Assembly: GCA_024682075.1 (NCBI GenBank)
Contig: JAIKZQ010000050.1
Coordinates: forward strand, 40,718-104,717
From: Lachnospiraceae bacterium
Lineage (GTDB): Bacteria; Bacillota; Clostridia; Lachnospirales; Lachnospiraceae
Length of the DNA stretch: 64,000 bases
Direction: 5' to 3'
The notes below the pieces were generated by a model, which had not been told where the DNA came from, ran no database searches, and saw only the letters and a list, made by a program, of their open reading frames with translations. Below are positions 8,717-17,793 of this stretch, one piece after another. The position numbers and the translations under genes were made by a program. Numbering within the stretch: the stretch's first letter is position 1; each line of letters begins with the position of its first letter.

Positions 8717-10744
8717 TTACGCTGTCTCGGCGCCCTCGGTTTCCATCTTCCTGTATGCTTCGCATACCTCCTTGGGATCACCGACCATGCGGAGGATTCC
8801 CTTTTCTATCCATACGCACTTGGTACAGTTATCTAGGATGGTTCCCATGCCATGGCTCACGATAAGTACAGTTCTTCCGCTGTGGATCATTTCCTTGATC
8901 CTGGCAAGACTCTTCTTGCGGAAGAATTCATCTCCGACGCTTAGGACTTCGTCCAGTATCAGTATCTCGGCAGCATCTCCTGCTGTGGCTATGGCAAAGC
9001 CGAGCCTTGACACCATTCCGGACGAGAAGTTCTTGACCTTCTCCTCCATGAAATCCTGAAGCTCGGCAAACTCGACTATTTCGTTATAATGTTCATCAAG
9101 GAATGATTTGGAATATCCTATGATAGAGCCGTTCAGGTACACGTTTTCCCTTGCTGTCAGTTCCATATCGAATCCGGTTCCGAGCGTAAGGAGCTGAACT
9201 TTCTTTCTGTCGACTTCAACTTTTCCTGATGTGGGTTTGAGTGCACCCGACACGATCTTAAGCAGGGTACTCTTTCCTGATCCGTTTGTTCCTATGATGC
9301 CTACTATCTCTCCCTTATATACATCGAAGCTTACATGATACAGTGCAAACAGCCTTCTGTAAGAGATATTTCTCTTGAGCATCTGGATAATGTAATCCTT
9401 AAGTCCCGAAGGGTTATATGCCGCAAGATGGAATTCCATTGTGACATCTTCTATTGATATAACCTTATCTCTTTCAATAGTCAGAAATTCACCGGGGAAC
9501 ACATACTCTTCTTCACCGGATTCAGATTCGTCACCTGCATTATGTGATACATTCTCAAGTGCATTGTTTTCACCGGCAATCTCTGCTGCGCCGGATTCAG
9601 GTTCTTCATTCTGTGCATTTTCAGCCCCCGACTCAGTCTGCGCATGCACAGTATTACTTTCCGGTTCATCACTGTCGGTGAACTCATCGGAATAATCTTC
9701 CTTCTCCTCCTCCTTTTCGAACCAGATTCCGTTTTCTTCGAATTCTCCTCCAAAATACTTCTCATACAGTTCGCGTCTTCTTCTCTTGACCTTCAGTTCA
9801 TATCTGGACTGACAGAATCCGATCATCAAAAGAAGAAATGCAATGACAAGGATATAGACCCATACTTCGGTATGATGATAAAGCCATGGCTCAGAGTCCG
9901 GTGTTTCATCGGGCCCATCCTGTGACTGCGTATCGGCATCCACGGGCATGCTGTCTCCACCATCTGAAACCTCCGCATCAGTTTCATCAGGCTTCACATC
10001 CGCGTCCCCGGCATCTGAGAGATCCTGATCGTCCGGGCCGGTAACAGCTGTTTGATTTTCTTCCGTCCCGGGCTCTTCAATGCTCTGCTCATCATCCGCC
10101 TGATCATCCGTCCGGCCATCCGCATCTTCATGCTCCTGCCGATCATCAGCTTCATTTTCATCCTGTCCGCTGTCTGCATCCTGCTGAGTGTCTGCGTCAT
10201 GACCGCCATCCGCATCAGTCTGATCCTGCACGGTCTCCACAGGCTTTGTGATGGTTACAGGTGCAATGTCATCTTCGGCAAATACACACTCCTCGGCAGG
10301 GGCCTCCGGAATGATCGTTCCATCTTCTAGAACAGTTTCGGGATGCGGATAAGTGAATACATACTGCGGTGAAAGACATATTCCCGTTACGCCCTCCATT
10401 CTGGGCTCGAACACAAGCATATACTTCTGTTTATTAAGTCCGTTCCCGACTTCATCCACGAGATAGATCAGGCCGCTTTCGGTATCGGCAAAGGAACCTC
10501 CGCCTTTGTACTCGAGAATGTTCGGATCATATCCGATCATGACACAGTGGGCTCCGACTCCTTCATCGCATCTGATAAAAATGCCTACGTTAAAGTCACT
10601 TCCCGTCTCTATCTCATAGGAAGCAGAACCGCAGTAGATAACTGCCTCTGCGGCAAGGACGTGGATATTCGGTTTTAGGATCATGAGGATCATCGCCAGA
10701 AGGGCCGGCATCATCCTCCGAATTCTAATCCGCATTTTCATCAC
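8717..10744 (-). CDS. wzt: Wzt/TagH-type polysaccharide ABC exporter ATPase fused to signal peptide, cohesin-like domain, acidic linker and TM helix
   Basis: C-terminal about 250 aa carry Walker A GTNGSGKST, FSSGM signature, ILILDE and VSH. The N-terminus has a signal-like peptide ending VLA-A, a beta-rich domain with GYDPNILEY, a D/E-rich linker and the hydrophobic helix VWVYILVIAFLLLMIGFC. Confidence 0.82.
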   Translation of the reverse strand: MMKMRIRIRRMMPALLAMILMILKPNIHVLAAEAVIYCGSASYEIETGSDFNVGIFIRCDEGVGAHCVMIGYDPNILEYKGGGSFADTESGLIYLVDEVGNGLNKQKYMLVFEPRMEGVTGICLSPQYVFTYPHPETVLEDGTIIPEAPAEECVFAEDDIAPVTITKPVETVQDQTDADGGHDADTQQDADSGQDENEADDRQEHEDADGRTDDQADDEQSIEEPGTEENQTAVTGPDDQDLSDAGDADVKPDETDAEVSDGGDSMPVDADTQSQDGPDETPDSEPWLYHHTEVWVYILVIAFLLLMIGFCQSRYELKVKRRRRELYEKYFGGEFEENGIWFEKEEEKEDYSDEFTDSDEPESNTVHAQTESGAENAQNEEPESGAAEIAGENNALENVSHNAGDESESGEEEYVFPGEFLTIERDKVISIEDVTMEFHLAAYNPSGLKDYIIQMLKRNISYRRLFALYHVSFDVYKGEIVGIIGTNGSGKSTLLKIVSGALKPTSGKVEVDRKKVQLLTLGTGFDMELTARENVYLNGSIIGYSKSFLDEHYNEIVEFAELQDFMEEKVKNFSSGMVSRLGFAIATAGDAAEILILDEVLSVGDEFFRKKSLARIKEMIHSGRTVLIVSHGMGTILDNCTKCVWIEKGILRMVGDPKEVCEAYRKMETEGAETA

Positions 10745-10789: not shown

Positions 10790-11569
10790 TCATAGCGTCT
10801 GCATGATCTTGTTTTCTTTAACCTTAAAAACAGCAAGTCCGATTCCCATGCTGATGACGCTCCATATCCCGAGCCTTAGCCAGACCCAGGCTTCAGGCAC
10901 TCTTCCGTACATCACGCATTCTCTGGCAAAGTGGATCAGCAGATAGATGGGGTTCAGATTTACGACCTTCTGCATATTATCGGACAGGCTTGTGACAGGA
11001 TAAAATACTGCAGACATATACATCAGCACACGCAGCACGACGCTGTACAGGTATTTGATGTCTGCAAAAAACACATATTCAGTTGCAAGCAGATAACTGA
11101 ATCCTATCGAAATGATCAGAGCAAAGAGCACTCCGACAGGAAACAGAAGCATTGTCACTGAAGGATGTACCCGGAATATCATGAGCATCAGGATATAAGG
11201 TATGCAGGTGTATCCGAAATTCACAAGAGCCGTATATACTCTCGACAAAATGAAAGTGTGCTTGGGAAGCTTTGCCTTGATCAGAAGAGTTTTATTATCC
11301 ACCAGTGCCGTCATGGCCGAATTGGATGCAGTATCGAAAAGAGTCCAGATGATCTGTCCGGTAAGATAATAGATGGGGAAATTCTCAATATTTCTGCTGA
11401 ACATTTTAGAGAATATGAGTGACATCACCACCATCATCAGAAGAGGATTGAGAACGCTCCAGATAATGCCGAGTGAACTTCTTGCATATTTTCTTTTGAT
11501 CTCCCTGGAAGTCAGTTCGCTTATTACAAACGCATATTGCGCTATTCCGCTTTTCTTTTTATCTTCCAC
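10790..11569 (-). CDS. wzm: ABC-2 type polysaccharide export permease (Wzm/TagG)
   Basis: REIKRKYARSSLGIIWSVLNPL, six TM segments and NLNPIY; lies directly upstream of the Wzt-like gene. Confidence 0.9.
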   Translation of the reverse strand: MEDKKKSGIAQYAFVISELTSREIKRKYARSSLGIIWSVLNPLLMMVVMSLIFSKMFSRNIENFPIYYLTGQIIWTLFDTASNSAMTALVDNKTLLIKAKLPKHTFILSRVYTALVNFGYTCIPYILMLMIFRVHPSVTMLLFPVGVLFALIISIGFSYLLATEYVFFADIKYLYSVVLRVLMYMSAVFYPVTSLSDNMQKVVNLNPIYLLIHFARECVMYGRVPEAWVWLRLGIWSVISMGIGLAVFKVKENKIMQTL

Positions 11570-12989
11570 GCTTTACACCTGACTTTCTGACTTCAGTCAA
11601 TATTTTGGATCTTCTCTCGGACCTTAAGTACCTTCCGGCTTTTGACGCTTCTCCCTTGCAGGCATTTACTATCGAACCTTCAGGCCATCCGCTTTCAGGG
11701 AGCGAGCCATTTTTCATTCCGCATTTGATGCGAAGCTTATTCATCAGCCGATTGGCGGACAGATCCGATTCGTCCCACTTTTCGGCAAGGTCCTTCATGT
11801 CATTTTCAAGGACGTCGTCACAGAACTTCATCTTTCCAAAGCAAGACGCCTCCTCACAGGACGGCTCACTCATGCATAGAGATAACAGATCCTCGCACAT
11901 CCTCTCCAACTTTGAAAGGCACGCACTGCTTTCCGTTAAAGATGTCCCCTCAGCCAGTCTCCCTGCATCTTTCAGGAGTATTTCCTCATATCTCACGATC
12001 GCATCCTTATTGGGATTTCCTTCTTCCGAGGTGACGGGAATTATCTTTCCGCTGCCATCGTGAATATAACCGGTTGTAAGTCCTTCAGGCGCAGAACACA
12101 CTGCTTCGAAAAGACATATTGAAAACCGTGATCTTCTCCGGATGTTCTTAATTGACAGATCAGGAGATATGTAATAACTGTGATATCTGCTGCTGTCCGT
12201 TCCCGCGGGAAGACTGTACAGGCCGAAATAATATCCCTCAAGTTCAGACCCGGTATCCTTAGGCCATGTAATAAGCCTGTCCAGGCTTTTCTGAACCGTT
12301 CCTATCCATCCGCTGTCAACTATGGCGATCCCTCTGCCGAATCCTTCTTTCATTCCTTCCTGCGCAAGGTAATCCTGAAGGATCTGCCATTTACCTGATG
12401 CATGTTTTTTTACAATCTCAAAGAATTCCGGAACGTTTCTCAGCCTTTCTTTCAGATCGCATATCTTACGATAATCCAGCACATCATCGATACGGCCTGA
12501 CATCTCCGTCTTTGAAGCGATGTAATCCGTCTCCTCATCTTCAAGACTGGCACGCTTCATCATCTTGCGAAATGTCATGCCAAGTCCGCCGGTGCAGATA
12601 GTATCCATGCACTTTTCCCCGGATATGAAATATTCGGCACTCCTCAGGCTGAATCTCGAAACCGACATATATGTCAGTTTGATATCCGGTGCGATCACCG
12701 GAGCAAGCAGAAGTGCAGCCTTATAGAACAGATATCCGTCTCTTGCGAGAAATACAAGCTTCCCGATGCCCCGTTCATGTGCATCATTCAACACATACAG
12801 GACATATGAAAAAATGACCGGTGCAAATACATGTCCAAAAACAGCAATATCTGCTCCGGCCACATCAAGTGACTGATCAGGTCCCTCAGGATATGGACTT
12901 AAGTTTTCCCTGAATAACGGAACCCTGTTCACAATATTCCGGTATCTGTTCAAACGTTCTTCGAAGTTCATGATCCGGCGTATATGCAT
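11559..12989 (-). CDS. Conserved polysaccharide-locus protein resembling the C-terminal part of HAD-annotated proteins; start uncertain (12989 or 12971)
   Basis: FLARDGYL, VSRFSL and VDSGWIGTVQ motifs; I see no N-terminal DxDxT HAD motif. Confidence 0.6.
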   Translation of the reverse strand: MHIRRIMNFEERLNRYRNIVNRVPLFRENLSPYPEGPDQSLDVAGADIAVFGHVFAPVIFSYVLYVLNDAHERGIGKLVFLARDGYLFYKAALLLAPVIAPDIKLTYMSVSRFSLRSAEYFISGEKCMDTICTGGLGMTFRKMMKRASLEDEETDYIASKTEMSGRIDDVLDYRKICDLKERLRNVPEFFEIVKKHASGKWQILQDYLAQEGMKEGFGRGIAIVDSGWIGTVQKSLDRLITWPKDTGSELEGYYFGLYSLPAGTDSSRYHSYYISPDLSIKNIRRRSRFSICLFEAVCSAPEGLTTGYIHDGSGKIIPVTSEEGNPNKDAIVRYEEILLKDAGRLAEGTSLTESSACLSKLERMCEDLLSLCMSEPSCEEASCFGKMKFCDDVLENDMKDLAEKWDESDLSANRLMNKLRIKCGMKNGSLPESGWPEGSIVNACKGEASKAGRYLRSERRSKILTEVRKSGVKRGR

Positions 12990-13818
12990 TCTCCCTGATC
13001 TCTTTTGCCATTCTTCCTTCGGTTCGTTTAACCAGCCCGATCAGGGAAGGAGGCACCGCGCACGCTGCAATGGGTCTGATCACATACAGCCACCCGAGAG
13101 GAAACAGCATGCCCATCTTCTTAAAACCCTGGTATCTGATCCTTGCCTCGCACACTCTGTATCTTATTGTTCTTTTGTGATAGGACTTTTTTGTTTCGCG
13201 ATATCTGAAAAGAGCATCCTGAAGATTGTATCCTTTCAGACCTTTATCAGATAAGTTCATGAACATCTCGTAATCCTCACACCGAAGTGTTTCTTCGGAT
13301 TCGAGATATCCGTTTTCCTCATTAAAGATCTCGCCCCGGAACATCACGGAAGGGTGAATGAAGGGCGAATATTTATAATAATCTCTTTTTTCGGGGATTT
13401 CGGGCATCTGCCTGTATCCCCAGGTGCCGTCCTCATCAAACAGCTCGGCCGCAGAACCGCACCATGAATATTCTTTGTTTGATTCCAGAAATCCGACCTG
13501 TTTTTCAAATCTGTCGGGAAGGCTCTCATCGTCAGCATCCATCCTGGCAATGTATCTGCCCCTTGCCATCTTGATGCACTCATTCAGGGAAAAAGCAAGT
13601 CCTCTGTTTTCATCGCATCCGGCAAGTCTGATCCTCGGGTCCATGGAGGGGAGCTTATTAAGAAGTTCCAATGCCCCGGCATCAGAACCGTCATTCCAGA
13701 TGATGAATTCAAAATCCCCGCATGTCTGCGCAAGGACCGAATTCACGGCTCTTTCGAGAGCCTCTGTATCCCATTGGTTGTGCACCCCCATGATAACGGA
13801 GATCAACGGATCACTCAC
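12886..13818 (-). CDS. GT2 glycosyltransferase
   Basis: ISVIMGVHN, WNDGSD, YIARMDADD, HPSVMFR and CEDYE. Confidence 0.9.
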   Translation of the reverse strand: MSDPLISVIMGVHNQWDTEALERAVNSVLAQTCGDFEFIIWNDGSDAGALELLNKLPSMDPRIRLAGCDENRGLAFSLNECIKMARGRYIARMDADDESLPDRFEKQVGFLESNKEYSWCGSAAELFDEDGTWGYRQMPEIPEKRDYYKYSPFIHPSVMFRGEIFNEENGYLESEETLRCEDYEMFMNLSDKGLKGYNLQDALFRYRETKKSYHKRTIRYRVCEARIRYQGFKKMGMLFPLGWLYVIRPIAACAVPPSLIGLVKRTEGRMAKEIRENAYTPDHELRRTFEQIPEYCEQGSVIQGKLKSIS

Positions 13819-13822
13819 TTTA

Positions 13823-14974
13823 TTATTTCCCCACCCTCATGATCGCGTCCTCATATATCGGACGCATGCTTTTTCTGATCTCATCAGTTGTGAACTTCAG
13901 AGCTGAATCCCTGCACAAGGCAGAGTAACGCTCCAGCATTTCCTTATCCTCGGCAAAACGGTTTATCGCCTCGGCATATTCTATGGCACTCCCGGAGCGG
14001 CATATTATGGAATTACCGCCATCGACCGCATACTCCCTGATGCCTCTGGTATCCGATGCGATCAGAGGAACTCCGGACAATAGAGCCTCCACTGCCGCAA
14101 CGCCAAATCCCTCCCTCTTGGAAGGAAAAGCGAACACATCGGCTGTCTGAAGGATCTCCTCCATGTCGGTCCTGTATCCGAGAAGTCTTACCCTGTCCGA
14201 AAGATCGTATTTTCCGATCAGCTCCTTCAGCTTTTCTTCATTCGGACCTTTTCCGCAGATGCTGTAATATATCCTGTCAGACTTGATCGCAGCGATCGCT
14301 TCTATGATCACTTTCTGATTCTTGTTGTCATTAAGTTCGGCGGCGGTGACGATATGAAACGCATCAGCCGGAACCTCTATTTCTTTTCTCTTGGACTCCC
14401 TGATCTCAGGTCTGGGGCGGAATCTGTCGGGATCAACGCCCACTCCGTGGATCTGGGAAACATTCCATTTTTTCCTGACGTGGAATTTCACGGCTCTGAG
14501 ATAATCTTCACGATTTATTGTTATTATCCTGTCGGTCCACCTTGCGAGAAATTTCTCCGCAGGATAATACAGCAGCCAGTTTTTCAGCGGAGCACCGTCG
14601 TAGAAATGAAATCCGTGTGCCGTATATATCACATACGGATGCCTCTTGCTGAATCTTGCAGCAGCCCTTGCCACCACGCCGCCCATCGGGTTATGGCAAT
14701 GGATCATGTCTATCTCTTCTCTGTCAATGATGCGTCTTAACGAAACAAATGCCCGAAAGTTATCGAAAAACCTTGCCGGATTTTTCTTCACGCTTATCCT
14801 GTGAAGCTTTATTCCTTTTTTTATAAGAGCATCCTGATCGAACGGATAAATGGAATTTTCAAAATCGGATGCATAATGAATATTGCAGCCGAGTTCTTCC
14901 GCCAGTTCGACATCGCTCATCTCGAACTGCGGAAGAAAACCACTGATTGTAGTAACGAACAAAAGATTTGTCAT
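13823..14974 (-). CDS. GT4 glycosyltransferase (EpsD-like)
   Basis: HCHNPMGG, YTAHGFHFY, ELNDNKNQ and FPSKREGFGVAAVEA. Confidence 0.9.
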   Translation of the reverse strand: MTNLLFVTTISGFLPQFEMSDVELAEELGCNIHYASDFENSIYPFDQDALIKKGIKLHRISVKKNPARFFDNFRAFVSLRRIIDREEIDMIHCHNPMGGVVARAAARFSKRHPYVIYTAHGFHFYDGAPLKNWLLYYPAEKFLARWTDRIITINREDYLRAVKFHVRKKWNVSQIHGVGVDPDRFRPRPEIRESKRKEIEVPADAFHIVTAAELNDNKNQKVIIEAIAAIKSDRIYYSICGKGPNEEKLKELIGKYDLSDRVRLLGYRTDMEEILQTADVFAFPSKREGFGVAAVEALLSGVPLIASDTRGIREYAVDGGNSIICRSGSAIEYAEAINRFAEDKEMLERYSALCRDSALKFTTDEIRKSMRPIYEDAIMRVGK

Positions 14975-15657
14975 GCCCTGCGGAATTTTCTGAAAGCAAA
15001 TGCTGCACCGGTCAGGGATGCGAGTGCCAGTATCCAGAGAACGGATGATGAAGCACCGGTTCTGGGTGACTGCGCAGGTGAAGAACCGGATACTCTGACA
15101 ATGGAGATGGGTGAGAAGTTAGCCATTCTGAAAGTGATGACTCCGTCGGTCAGGCAGATTCCCCTGATGAGTTCCCAGGTAGTTCCGTTATAGTGAAGGA
15201 TGACAAGATTGTCGCCGGCCTTTACATAGGGATTGCTTACAACGATCGTGTACATTCCGTCGCTGTCGGGCACTGCAGTGGTCCTGTCTATGTCAACTGT
15301 GGCAAGGATCTCAGCCGTAACGGTTGCTCCCTGAGTTGTAGCTGCTGCCTGAAGGTTTGCGTCGCCCAGGAATGCTCCGAGTGCGGCAACATCCCTGAGG
15401 ATGAGGTTCTGTACAGCTACCTTTGCAGCATCAGCGGTTGTCTTTGATACCACTTCAACCTTATAACCATCGGATGTTTTGGTAATGTTCACGTAAGTGT
15501 CGGGATCTGCAGTCTCGGACACATATGTGATCGCGGTCTGTGTAGCTACAGGTGCCTGTACGGTATCCGGAGTGGGTGATCCTGCTGCAAGGGCAGTTAT
15601 GGAACTCATCATCGTCATCACCGCAACAGACATAAGTGCCAAAATCTTCTTTTTCAT
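14971..15657 (-). CDS. Sortase-anchored cell-surface protein (SPRTG sorting signal)
   Basis: N-terminal signal peptide; C-terminal QSPRTG, hydrophobic stretch and RKFRRA tail; Thr/Ala-rich; stop codon overlaps the next ATG (ATGA at 14971-14974). Confidence 0.82.
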   Translation of the reverse strand: MKKKILALMSVAVMTMMSSITALAAGSPTPDTVQAPVATQTAITYVSETADPDTYVNITKTSDGYKVEVVSKTTADAAKVAVQNLILRDVAALGAFLGDANLQAAATTQGATVTAEILATVDIDRTTAVPDSDGMYTIVVSNPYVKAGDNLVILHYNGTTWELIRGICLTDGVITFRMANFSPISIVRVSGSSPAQSPRTGASSSVLWILALASLTGAAFAFRKFRRA

Positions 15658-15744
15658 TTATGAATCCTCCTTCATAATAATTCTCTTCATATATATCAAG
15701 CAGAAATTCTTCTGCGGGATATCATAATGACACGGTCGTCATTT

Positions 15745-16854
15745 TCAATAGCTTGTCACCGGCTCGTAAAACAGGTCAACGATAAGTCTCTGCAGTGCTT
15801 CGTCATCAACATAATACTCTTCAAAATCGTTGCCCATTACCGTTTCTCCCGGAACAGTGTACAAATAATCAGCGTCAAATTCATACTCCATTGTCTCGGA
15901 TATAAGATAGGTGTAACTGCTCAGATTAAGATCAGTTACCATATATTTCTGGAGAAGCTGAAACAGTTCAACCGCTGCATTTACATCTCCGTTCACACAT
16001 TCTCTTGCTCTTGCGGCAAAGCAGGTCAGATACTGCTTCTGTCGTTCAAGTCTCAGTGCGTTCGAGTTGAATACATTTTCATTCCTGAGCCTTACGTACC
16101 AGTAAGCCTTCTCTCCCATGAGCGTGACAGTATCACCCTGATGAAGATCCATCTCATATTCGGGATAGATGATGTCATCGAGCACCTCCACGGTCACTCC
16201 GCCAACAGCATCATTAAGTTCCGGGATCGAATCCATGCTCACCGCTGCATATGCATGGATCGGAATGTTATAGAACATTCTCGAGACTGCTCTGACCTGA
16301 TGCTGAGCACATTCTGCCTGGTCGGAGCCGTATCCGTGCTGCAGTGCGATCTGCTGGGTAAATAGGCCTTTGTAATTCCCTTCCTTATCCCACACGTCAA
16401 CTTCGGCCATTGAATTTCTGTTTATTCCCACAACCCGAACGGTTTCATCATGAGGGTTCAGCAGCAGCAGGAAAAGTGCATCGGCCTGACCGCCGGTATT
16501 ATTTGATCCTTCTTCGGCGGTCCAGCTCTGTCCGCCGATCTCCAGTGCGGTCTCTTTGTCTATTCCCATCACAAGGATGCAGATCAGATCAGCATTGGGA
16601 ATGTATTCAACACCGTCCATTGTGACGTGTCCGTCAGCAAGACCGCTTATTCCCGCATTCCCGGCAAGACTTTCACTAACTATCACGTGAGATGTTTCAA
16701 GTCCCTCAACAGGTTTATGCAGGCTCCTTCCGCCGATCGTTTTCAGGACGATGAATATCCCGAAAATGATAAAAGCGATCATAAGGAGCGTAAGCACCAT
16801 TACTCCGCCGGCACTGCGTTTTTTCTTTTCTGTAATAACCTTATCTTCAAGCAT
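15745..16854 (-). CDS. LCP (LytR-CpsA-Psr) family glycopolymer-phosphate transferase
   Basis: N-terminal TM; ILVMGID, GQADAL, INRNS, LNDAVGGVTV and YVRLR...RLERQKQY. Confidence 0.88.
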   Translation of the reverse strand: MLEDKVITEKKKRSAGGVMVLTLLMIAFIIFGIFIVLKTIGGRSLHKPVEGLETSHVIVSESLAGNAGISGLADGHVTMDGVEYIPNADLICILVMGIDKETALEIGGQSWTAEEGSNNTGGQADALFLLLLNPHDETVRVVGINRNSMAEVDVWDKEGNYKGLFTQQIALQHGYGSDQAECAQHQVRAVSRMFYNIPIHAYAAVSMDSIPELNDAVGGVTVEVLDDIIYPEYEMDLHQGDTVTLMGEKAYWYVRLRNENVFNSNALRLERQKQYLTCFAARARECVNGDVNAAVELFQLLQKYMVTDLNLSSYTYLISETMEYEFDADYLYTVPGETVMGNDFEEYYVDDEALQRLIVDLFYEPVTSY

Positions 16855-16863
16855 TCGTTTTCA

Positions 16864-17793
16864 TCACGGATTCAAAAGGACTCCGACGACCAGAAATCTC
16901 TTTGAAGCATCATGGTTAACAGTGCAGGTCGAGAGAGTAATGAGCCTGTCATCCACATCCGGCTCTATATCATGACGGATGTTGGCCGGATAAGGGCTGG
17001 TGGAATCCATATTTTCTATATTTCTGATGTACTGTGCAAACACATACTCATTCGACACATCAAAATTCAGCAAAAGGTGGATCGAGACATATTCATATGC
17101 GGCGAAGATCTCATACACCAGTTCTCTTCCGTCCTCAGTGTATATGTAGATATAGTGAGGCTCTTCCACCATCTGAGGATCCGCGAAATTATGCAGCGTG
17201 GAAAACATCGTGTCGTTATCCATGTTGTGTCCGTAGATCACCGTGTTGGGATCGGTAAAATCCCTGCTGTTGTAATTCTCCGTATATATCACGCCCGGAA
17301 AGCCGTATGATCCGTCCAGGTTGTGATTGAGATAATACTCATTGTTCGAAGGATGCTGCAGGACAGGATAGTCAACGCATGTCCCCGGCACATATATCCA
17401 CGCATAAATATCCGGATTGGTCTGATGAAGCTTATCCCAGTCAAGTTCTCTGACAGGAGCTTCGGGAATATCCGATGCGTCTCCGTCATCAGAGATTTCA
17501 TCACTCCCCTGTTCCGATGCATTCTCCGAGTTCTCTCCCTGCGCGGCAGCTTCCATGAGCCCCTCGGGAGACAGACCGCCGGTCGTCCTATCATCCGCTC
17601 CTTCCGAAACTTCGGCTGCGGATCCTGCGCCTTCTGTACTCGCTTCCTGAGCCAGCTGTTCATACGCCGCACGCCGGGCATTTTCATTCTTTTCACGTAT
17701 CACGGATGCTATCACGCAAAAAGCCCCGACACACAGCAGCCAGGCAGCAATGGCAAGCCACAGTATTTTTTTTCGGAAGTCATTATTTTCCAT
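16864..17793 (-). CDS. srtB: Class B sortase
   Basis: N-terminal TM; NPDIYAWIYVPGT, IYGHNM (His), TLSTCT (Cys) and RFLVVG (Arg). Confidence 0.92.
   Translation of the reverse strand: MENNDFRKKILWLAIAAWLLCVGAFCVIASVIREKNENARRAAYEQLAQEASTEGAGSAAEVSEGADDRTTGGLSPEGLMEAAAQGENSENASEQGSDEISDDGDASDIPEAPVRELDWDKLHQTNPDIYAWIYVPGTCVDYPVLQHPSNNEYYLNHNLDGSYGFPGVIYTENYNSRDFTDPNTVIYGHNMDNDTMFSTLHNFADPQMVEEPHYIYIYTEDGRELVYEIFAAYEYVSIHLLLNFDVSNEYVFAQYIRNIENMDSTSPYPANIRHDIEPDVDDRLITLSTCTVNHDASKRFLVVGVLLNP

Follow-up and report, generated by a model that had tools for sequence, protein, structure and literature searches.

In a 64,000-nucleotide (nt) stretch of the genome of a rumen/gut Lachnospiraceae bacterium (contig JAIKZQ010000050.1, positions 40,718 to 104,717; hereafter the window), we describe a gene on the minus strand (8717..10744) that encodes, in a single open frame of 675 codons, a cohesin-like domain predicted to lie outside the cell and the ATPase of a glycan exporter. 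The best explanation overall, which we regard as probable though well short of certain, is that the ATPase of an exporter of the TagGH/Wzm-Wzt type is at the same time a type-I membrane protein with a cohesin socket on the outer side of the membrane. The N-terminal half of this fused protein (the query) is homologous, by profile searches, to a Lachnospiraceae-wide family of single-copy membrane-anchored cohesins.

One open frame from signal peptide to ATPase

An earlier note, made from the letters of the window, had described within one frame a signal peptide, a beta-rich domain, a D/E-rich spacer, a transmembrane helix, an acidic linker and an intact ATPase, and this order was borne out by the open reading frame (ORF), Pfam and AlphaFold2 (Table 1). 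In a full-length AlphaFold2 model built with 19 homologues, an N-terminal helix (residues 2-22) is followed by a beta domain (33-166; predicted local distance difference test, pLDDT, ~80-89), disorder (171-289, pLDDT ~31), a second helix (287-331), further disorder (332-424) and the nucleotide-binding domain (NBD; 427-674). The cleavage region of the signal peptide reads V-L-A-A-E-A (VLA/AEA) in the query. Both the hydrophobic segments and the segmentation of the model support the topology that had been proposed, namely, that the N-terminal cohesin-like domain is predicted to be exposed at the surface and the ATPase to be inside. The full layout of a membrane cohesin anchor, i.e., signal peptide, cohesin, stalk, single transmembrane helix and acidic cytoplasmic stretch, was thus found in the query.

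Table 1. Positions in the window of the fused gene, its parts and the genes of its cluster (aa, amino acids)
Feature	Positions	Strand	Basis or remark
Whole fused gene, 675 aa: signal peptide, cohesin-like domain, acidic stalk, transmembrane helix, linker and TagH/Wzt-type NBD	8717..10744	-	
Signal peptide, residues 1 to ~34: R-rich n-region, h-region 14-32, conserved V-x-A-A/E-A cleavage region	10643..10744	-	
Cohesin-like beta-sandwich ectodomain, residues ~33-166	10247..10648	-	AlphaFold2, Foldseek, Pfam, PDB profile
Acidic D/E/Q/T-rich disordered extracellular stalk, residues 167-289	9878..10246	-	pLDDT ~31
Stop-transfer transmembrane helix, residues 293-311, then KVKRRRR (positive-inside)	9812..9868	-	
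Disordered acidic cytoplasmic linker, residues 312-426	9467..9811	-	
TagH/Wzt-type ABC NBD, residues 427-675	8720..9466	-	Catalytic motifs all intact; without Wzt_C
ABC-2 permease (Wzm/TagG-like, ABC2_membrane), directly upstream of the fused gene	10790..11569	-	
Conserved upstream core of the cluster as a whole	11559..17793	-	
Sortase	16864-17793	-	
LCP ligase	15745-16854	-	
SPRTG sortase substrate, 228 aa	14971-15657	-	
GT4	13823-14974	-	
GT2	12886-13818	-	
476-aa protein	11559-12989	-	Without Pfam match
Variable downstream glycan-specific genes: GT4, GT2-GT8, FrhB-like/pyruvyl transferase, methyltransferase	449..8403	-	GC 33% vs 47%

As to the ATPase, the only Pfam match of the fused protein was ABC_tran (residues 470-600, E 8.8e-22), and Wzt_C (PF14524) gave no Pfam match in it. 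The top NCBIfam models, over residues ~428-667, were the TagH teichoic-acid export ATPases PRK13545 and PRK13546 together with the galactan Wzt; the scores of 143-182 bits are below the equivalog cut-offs of 320-538 bits, and PRK13545 aligns by its NBD part alone (model positions 6-237 of 549). By these profiles, the domain is TagH/Wzt-like but not an equivalog. The motifs of a TagH/Wzt-type NBD (Walker A, Q-loop, SSGM-type signature, Walker B and H-loop) are all present in the query, and Walker A (485-493), the SSGM signature (574-577), Walker B (594-599) and H631 of the H-loop are invariant across 19 homologues.

Independent sequences indicate that the fused frame is no assembly artefact. 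Where they overlap it, Logan contigs from three different gut metagenome samples agree with the window in every letter, and a divergent strain from another study is represented by a 1069-nt contig (over 9208-10276) that differs by 21 substitutions but is gapless all the way from the stalk, across the transmembrane helix and the linker, to the ATPase. A missed stop or an indel, with which the earlier note had reckoned as the possible source of a spurious fusion, was seen in none of these contigs. When 23 substitutions of the divergent strain were mapped, those in the signal peptide (two), the cohesin-like domain (two) and the NBD (ten) were all synonymous third-position changes, while the stalk and the linker had six non-synonymous against three synonymous ones. 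Such a pattern, synonymous in the folded parts and variable in the spacers, is what translation of the whole frame with only loose constraint on the spacers should leave behind, and the cohesin-like ectodomain appears to be under purifying selection.

Within residues 330-440, no internal start with a credible Shine-Dalgarno sequence was found among the in-frame candidates V366, V415 and M436 (pairing no stronger than -3.5 kcal/mol), the last of which falls within the first conserved strand of the NBD. The earlier note had likewise seen no convincing ribosome-binding site and start before the ATPase, and a separate ATPase made from an internal start was rejected for lack of a credible pair of Shine-Dalgarno sequence and start. 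The start of the frame itself is ambiguous, the choice being among GTG 10744, ATG 10741, ATG 10735 and ATG 10711. In the region 10706-10744, the sole strong GGAGG stands 3 nt before ATG 10711 (residue 12); a start there would delete the positively charged n-region of the signal peptide, and gene callers pick both long and short starts in relatives. The architecture is unaffected by this choice.

The N-terminal domain and the wider family of membrane cohesins

The N-terminal domain had been described as cohesin-like, beta-rich, roughly 140 aa long and marked by the motif GYDPNILEY; the motif, which is located in the beta-rich stretch of the query, and the beta fold stand, while the folded domain is smaller, about 130 aa. 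Its likeness to cohesins was confirmed by matches of the family profile and is suggested by fold searches. Fourteen of 16 aligned family members match Pfam Cohesin (PF00963) at E<=10, the best at 2.4e-6, and practically no other family is matched; some stand-alone relatives exceed the Pfam cut-off, with 30.4 and 24.3 bits. When the family profile was compared with all PDB sequences, 13 of the 14 matches, the best ones included, were cohesins, among them ScaB adaptors, NagJ of C. perfringens and clostridial scaffoldins. An AlphaFold2 model of the isolated domain is all-beta (pLDDT 88.8; predicted template-modelling score, pTM, 0.80), and its best Foldseek matches are again cohesins (2w1n, 4ums, 2jh2, 3ul4, 1qzn and others). 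Among the first 50 Foldseek matches, cohesins, whose fold is a nine-stranded beta-sandwich, are the commonest kind (about half) at template-modelling (TM) scores of 0.5-0.62, and non-cohesin Ig-like and carbohydrate-binding-module (CBM)-like folds also match. The label "cohesin-like" is justified, therefore, but strict membership of the query sequence in Pfam Cohesin is not; in terms of the three profiles that the earlier note had named, ABC_tran matched, Cohesin matched for the family but stayed below threshold for the query, and Wzt_C did not match.

In a word-indexed homologue search, the N-terminal 330 residues of the query returned five proteins only; the family is visible by exhaustive profile search, which gave 273 cluster representatives at E<=1e-10. 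A Walker A motif, indicating a fused ATPase, is present in 51 of the best 150 representative proteins with the domain. In a few proteins of other bacteria, the module composed of signal peptide, cohesin, stalk and transmembrane helix is joined to an ABC-2 permease, as shown by Pfam ABC2_membrane for P0049 and P0091 and by the pattern of transmembrane segments for P0101 and P0136, so that each of the two exporter subunits has acquired the module in a fusion of its own; many other representatives are stand-alone proteins of the same layout with a short acidic tail, although some of these entries are short fragments. One representative (P0056, 638 aa) has a C-terminal NBD-like domain with a degenerate Walker A (ITGQGKRD) and may be a pseudo-ATPase version of the fusion.

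When one genome was taken per genus, the domain was present in 115 of 301 Lachnospiraceae genomes (~38%), almost always as a single copy, and it was rare outside Lachnospiraceae (5 of ~290 genomes of the class at E<=1e-8). The 72 loci examined from this genus sample comprise four ATPase fusions, the query included, and 68 stand-alone members, which are type-I membrane proteins of 340-800 aa and many of which add a Cadherin-like sandwich domain. LCP ligase genes adjoin 19 of the 68. Two neighbourhoods recur among the stand-alone genes. In one, the order is a sugar-phosphate transferase, an LCP, a GT2 and a second LCP, then the cohesin gene and glmS; in another, a large secreted protein is followed by the cohesin gene and then by ctsR-mcsA-mcsB-clpC.

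Forty of the 68 stand-alone proteins end in a conserved C-terminal peptide, D-x-F-x-hydrophobic-D-F-I-D-L-D, which looks like a short linear docking motif. A looser version occurs in the cytoplasmic linkers of many fused proteins (FEFIDLD, LNILDFD, IQFVDVD), and the strict pattern was found in 21 of 72 fused linkers. At the loci L056-L106 (e.g., L080, L090 and L093), the cytoplasmic C-terminus is nearly invariant and reads DDTFKVDFIDLD or DDDFEFIDLD.

Partners of the stand-alone cohesins came to light in a Dockerin_1 search of 30 module-bearing genomes, 13 of which were positive; in nine of the 13, the cohesin gene is immediately preceded by an ORF whose C-terminus is the dockerin. These adjacent dockerins have canonical, duplicated calcium-loop sequences. 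The upstream proteins are built in the order SH3b, catalytic domain, Cadherin-like and Dockerin, and the catalytic domain matches the staphylococcal Atl/AtlE N-acetylglucosaminidases (GH73-like). With a custom dockerin hidden Markov model (HMM), an adjacent upstream dockerin was found in 14 of the 68 stand-alone loci and at none of the fused loci; in the query, the gene immediately upstream is the ABC-2 permease, not a dockerin-tagged SH3b-GH73 hydrolase. Two-gene cassettes, in which a dockerin-tagged autolysin gene is followed by a membrane-cohesin gene, are seen at the loci L108-L116 (genomes G022, G187, G227, G175, G132, G289, G283, G002 and G064). Such a cassette would be a non-cellulosomal cohesin-dockerin pair that tethers an autolysin to the membrane. 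A pair of this kind, in which the membrane anchor bears the cohesin and the autolysin the dockerin, is given for Ruminococcus bicirculans in a one-line remark (PMC4611034). ClcC/ClcD of Cellulosilyticum, in contrast, is a cellulase pair and was hence rejected as a membrane-cohesin/exporter system. In a tree of cohesin domains, a split with support of 100/99 separates 58 sequences from a group that comprises all 18 fused ones, five dockerin-paired ones and five short ones that stand alone, a topology compatible with a single origin of the fusion as well as with several.

Retention of the fusion and the possible role of the ectodomain

Relatives of the query ATPase were scanned with one genome per species, and 27 Lachnospiraceae loci were compared whose ATPases are 72-87% identical in the best segment or match over the full length. 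At 16 of the 27, the ATPase is the C-terminal part of a single frame of 563-664 aa with the parts in the same order, and the fused form is found also in two more genera (L038 and L047); in all, about twenty related species share the fusion. The count of full-length homologues, which the earlier note had proposed as a check, came to at least 16 species with a single frame and one metagenome-assembled genome (MAG; L002) with a split gene. The chemistry of the extracellular spacer is unrelated between lineages, being acidic and disordered, Pro/Thr-rich (L004) or made of E/A/R-rich repeats (L013 and L015); the spacers are unrelated in sequence yet always in frame among the fused relatives. Over 74 fused proteins, the extracellular spacer has a median of 107 aa, and the cytoplasmic linker has a median of 73 aa. 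That the length of the stalk is roughly kept despite its differing chemistry suggests selection on reach and not on sequence. The E/A/R-rich repeats in the stalks of L013, L015 and L003 resemble single alpha-helix (ER/K) spacers.

The gene would have arisen by fusion of a cohesin-anchor gene to wzt. In its product, the signal peptide is predicted to send the cohesin-like domain and the ~120-aa acidic stalk outside and the stop-transfer helix to anchor the protein; the flexible linker leads to the cytoplasmic NBD, the predicted partner of which is the permease from the adjoining upstream gene. Built as a (permease)2(ATPase)2 complex, each exporter would then have two cohesin sockets, on flexible stalks able to sit in or span the wall. 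Such a socket might hold an extracellular partner at the place where the lipid-linked polymer emerges and might thereby couple export to wall assembly or remodelling; alternatively, it might tether the exporter to some landmark in the wall. As in any TagGH, the energy of ATP hydrolysis is most likely spent on export, and mechanical coupling to the ectodomain is unlikely because of the two disordered spacers. The narrower proposal that the cohesin is a working docking socket, which recruits to the polymer exit site a wall-assembly or remodelling protein (an LCP ligase, the SPRTG substrate or a hydrolase with a non-canonical dockerin), is made here tentatively, and we consider it less likely than not. 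The earlier note had suggested that the LCP, the sortase or the acceptor protein could be recruited. Two products of the operon, its LCP ligase and its SPRTG sortase substrate, are possible partners but candidates only: no specific observation speaks for recruitment of the LCP ligase, the SPRTG protein or the sortase, and their genes are equally present in cohesin-less relatives.

The arrangement is not without precedent. In B. subtilis, the NBD of TagH is joined to a transmembrane helix and an extracellular SH3b-like domain (PMC11466899), and close relatives of the query form a graded series described below; the view that Wzt/TagH ATPases, which the earlier note called normally soluble, are always so is therefore wrong. 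Its remark that no characterised example is known remains valid for the N-terminal cohesin form, because the literature searched yielded no description of a characterised cohesin-Wzt/TagH fusion, but given TagH it fails as a claim of no precedent. TagH is the best NCBIfam match of the query NBD, and both proteins have the NBD of an ABC-2 (type V) wall-polymer exporter, one transmembrane helix and an ectodomain on a flexible linker (PMC11466899). The order, however, is reversed: in the query, the ectodomain precedes the NBD, which forms the C-terminal part, and such an order makes a signal peptide necessary. TagH has an SH3b-like ectodomain and the query a cohesin-like one, the stalk is ~30 aa in TagH and ~120 aa in the query, and the query scores under the TagH equivalog cut-offs. 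What is new here is the ectodomain-first order, the cohesin-type ectodomain and the long stalk, the arrangement of NBD, transmembrane helix and ectodomain being already known from TagH.

Other known systems are like the query in part. The membrane single-cohesin anchors share with it a homologous N-terminal half and the layout of signal peptide, cohesin, stalk, transmembrane helix and acidic tail, but the tail of the query runs on into an ABC ATPase, the query has no Cadherin-like stalk domain, and a dockerin/GH73 partner was not found beside its gene or in its genome. Classical Wzt (e.g., of the E. coli O9a type) has an NBD of the same subfamily and an ABC-2 permease partner in a glycan cluster; its Wzt_C is cytoplasmic, whereas the query is membrane-anchored, lacks Wzt_C and has its accessory domain outside the cell. 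The non-cellulosomal cohesins of C. perfringens (NagJ/GH84C; 2w1n, 2jh2 and 2ozn), the top fold and profile matches of the N-terminal domain, are likewise used outside cellulosomes, but they belong to secreted enzymes, their ligands are dockerin-like modules on other enzymes, and none is on a transporter. FtsEX-PcsB/CwlO (type VII ABC) also links an ABC ATPase complex physically to an extracellular docking site for wall enzymes. It is, however, of another fold and family, and the FtsEX ectodomain is on the permease and transmits force; the query exporter would be a true polymer exporter, in which two disordered spacers make force transmission unlikely.

Several observations weigh against an exporter with a cohesin socket. 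Some of these concern the domain and the linker themselves: Pfam Cohesin gives the query alone 13 bits (E 0.12), short of the gathering cut-off of 24.1, the TM-scores of the fold against cohesins are modest (~0.55-0.62), and the FIDLD-type motif of the linker is degenerate in the query (YVFPGEF) and was for that reason left out of the mechanism proposed above. Others concern the single product. RNA is limited to three short metatranscriptome contigs, which cover nothing but the conserved ATPase part, may stem from relatives and are uninformative on a single transcript or product; and in L002, one rumen MAG, the gene is split by frameshifts in the linker, with a Met start for the ATPase ORF. 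The split locus (L002:5986-7920, from water-buffalo rumen) consists of a 313-aa cohesin/transmembrane ORF and a 258-aa ATPase ORF beginning MIVSDERERVISV, and the split might be due to a sequencing error, mark a pseudogene or represent a natural return to two separate genes. The start Met of this ATPase ORF is also present in L001. One might then suppose that the fusion is only apparent and that a membrane cohesin and a soluble ATPase are made by way of an internal start, a frameshift or proteolysis of the linker, the more so as gene callers disagree on starts and a disordered linker could be cleaved. We consider this very improbable, however, since the independent contigs are gapless, the frame is open through unrelated linkers in at least 16 species, and the only methionine among the internal candidates lies inside a conserved strand of the NBD in a region without a credible Shine-Dalgarno start.

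The relatives, furthermore, form a graded series from the full fusion through stalk and transmembrane helix only, and transmembrane helix only, to a soluble NBD, and the far end of this series counts against the socket as well. Namely, L021 keeps the signal peptide, stalk and transmembrane helix but has lost the cohesin; L008, L009, L012 and L017 (Roseburia zhanii among them) have only an N-terminal transmembrane helix before the NBD; and two Butyrivibrio strains (L020 and L027) have a plain soluble NBD of 250 aa. Membrane anchoring is common in the NBD clade of the query ATPase, and the existence of cohesin-less close relatives indicates that the ectodomain is a losable accessory, not essential for export. 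This graded loss, together with the failure to find the ancestral dockerin-GH73 partner in the query genome, would be consistent with the cohesin and its stalk being a relic, drifting to loss after its partner has gone, so that only the anchoring of the NBD matters. Such an outcome seems to us rather improbable, because at least 16 species retain the domain, with identities of 24-46% and conservation of residues in its core, and because it is modelled with confidence and changed between strains by synonymous substitutions only, as did the signal peptide, while non-synonymous ones fell in the spacers.

The remaining points against the socket concern its partner. The query genome, a 2.84-Mb MAG of ~90% completeness from the same genus as Lachnospiraceae bacterium AC2028, has one cohesin only, that of the fused gene. 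No dockerin was found in it by Pfam Dockerin_1 or by the custom dockerin HMM on all six-frame ORFs (best E 0.063), and GH73 was not found either; neither GH73 nor a homologue of the dockerin protein was found in the query genome or G151. Dockerin and GH73 were also not found in a 99%-complete genome of the same genus, nor was a dockerin in two other genomes carrying the fused form. Canonical cohesin-dockerin pairing in the query genome was thus rejected, and the partner in the query genus would not be a canonical dockerin protein. The lack of dockerins in the fused-form genomes searched would also fit an ectodomain that binds carbohydrate, i.e., the exported glycopolymer or peptidoglycan, and not protein, and that holds either the exporter or the growing chain in its proper place relative to the wall. 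Cohesin-like beta-sandwiches resemble CBMs, Foldseek also returns Ig-like and CBM-like domains, and the SH3b-like ectodomain of B. subtilis TagH offers an analogy; nonetheless, we find binding of carbohydrate unlikely, given that the sequence profiles match cohesins almost exclusively and that the nearest stand-alone relatives have cognate dockerins adjoining. To our knowledge, no function has been assigned to the TagH ectodomain.

The main value of the exporter with a cohesin socket lies in the way it links, in evolution, wall-polymer export with membrane cohesin anchors and with the hydrolases and ligases of the wall. An anchor that is elsewhere paired with autolysin or LCP genes is in some lineages hard-wired to either subunit of an exporter, which is fusion evidence of the Rosetta-stone type and bears on the poorly understood coupling of wall-glycopolymer synthesis and export to extracellular ligation and wall hydrolysis in Gram-positives. 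If the socket is real, it would, along with the permease fusions and the stand-alone anchors beside LCP and dockerin-tagged autolysin genes, define a cellulosome-style plug-and-socket system by which Gram-positive wall construction is organised around ABC exporters, and the cohesin-dockerin principle would extend from polysaccharide degradation to the cell's own envelope. The ligand of the socket, and the positioning of export relative to ligation or hydrolysis, can be tested in cultured rumen and gut Lachnospiraceae.

Gene cluster and genome context

The ABC-2 permease gene is directly upstream of the ATPase gene in all of the 25 related loci with the upstream flank present, and this adjacency, in a cluster with an LCP ligase, gives the query locus the context of a glycan exporter. 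The core genes for the LCP, the 228-aa SPRTG substrate, GT4, GT2, the 476-aa protein, the permease and the ATPase are conserved in relatives with or without the cohesin, and the sortase gene recurs in only three of the 28 loci compared. Within +/-6 kb, no gene distinguishes cohesin-bearing from cohesin-less loci, and no cohesin-specific partner was found in the cluster.

The gene for the 476-aa protein overlaps that for the permease, and its position is conserved in nearly all related loci; the protein may be a cytoplasmic component of the polymer pathway, e.g., a chain terminator or a regulator that replaces Wzt_C. The 228-aa secreted protein, which has the SPRTG sorting signal, a hydrophobic tail and RKFRRA, is encoded between the LCP and GT4 genes and recurs in 21 related loci. 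Its gene has the strongest Shine-Dalgarno sequence of the cluster (-11.7 kcal/mol).

The guanine-plus-cytosine (GC) content falls immediately downstream of the ATPase gene, from ~47% (window 8700-64000) to ~33% (1-8700). The low-GC genes (GT4, a 1040-aa GT2-GT8 fusion, an FrhB-like/pyruvyl-transferase fusion and a methyltransferase) fill a position that is variable between relatives, and the block looks like a horizontally exchanged glycan-specificity module. Elsewhere in the query genome, a second ABC-2 exporter (contig C46:72117-74420) includes a soluble Wzt of the classical type bearing Wzt_C (PF14524, E 2.6e-41). The anchored cohesin form is therefore specific to the exporter of the query cluster, and the bacterium has two differently organised glycan exporters.

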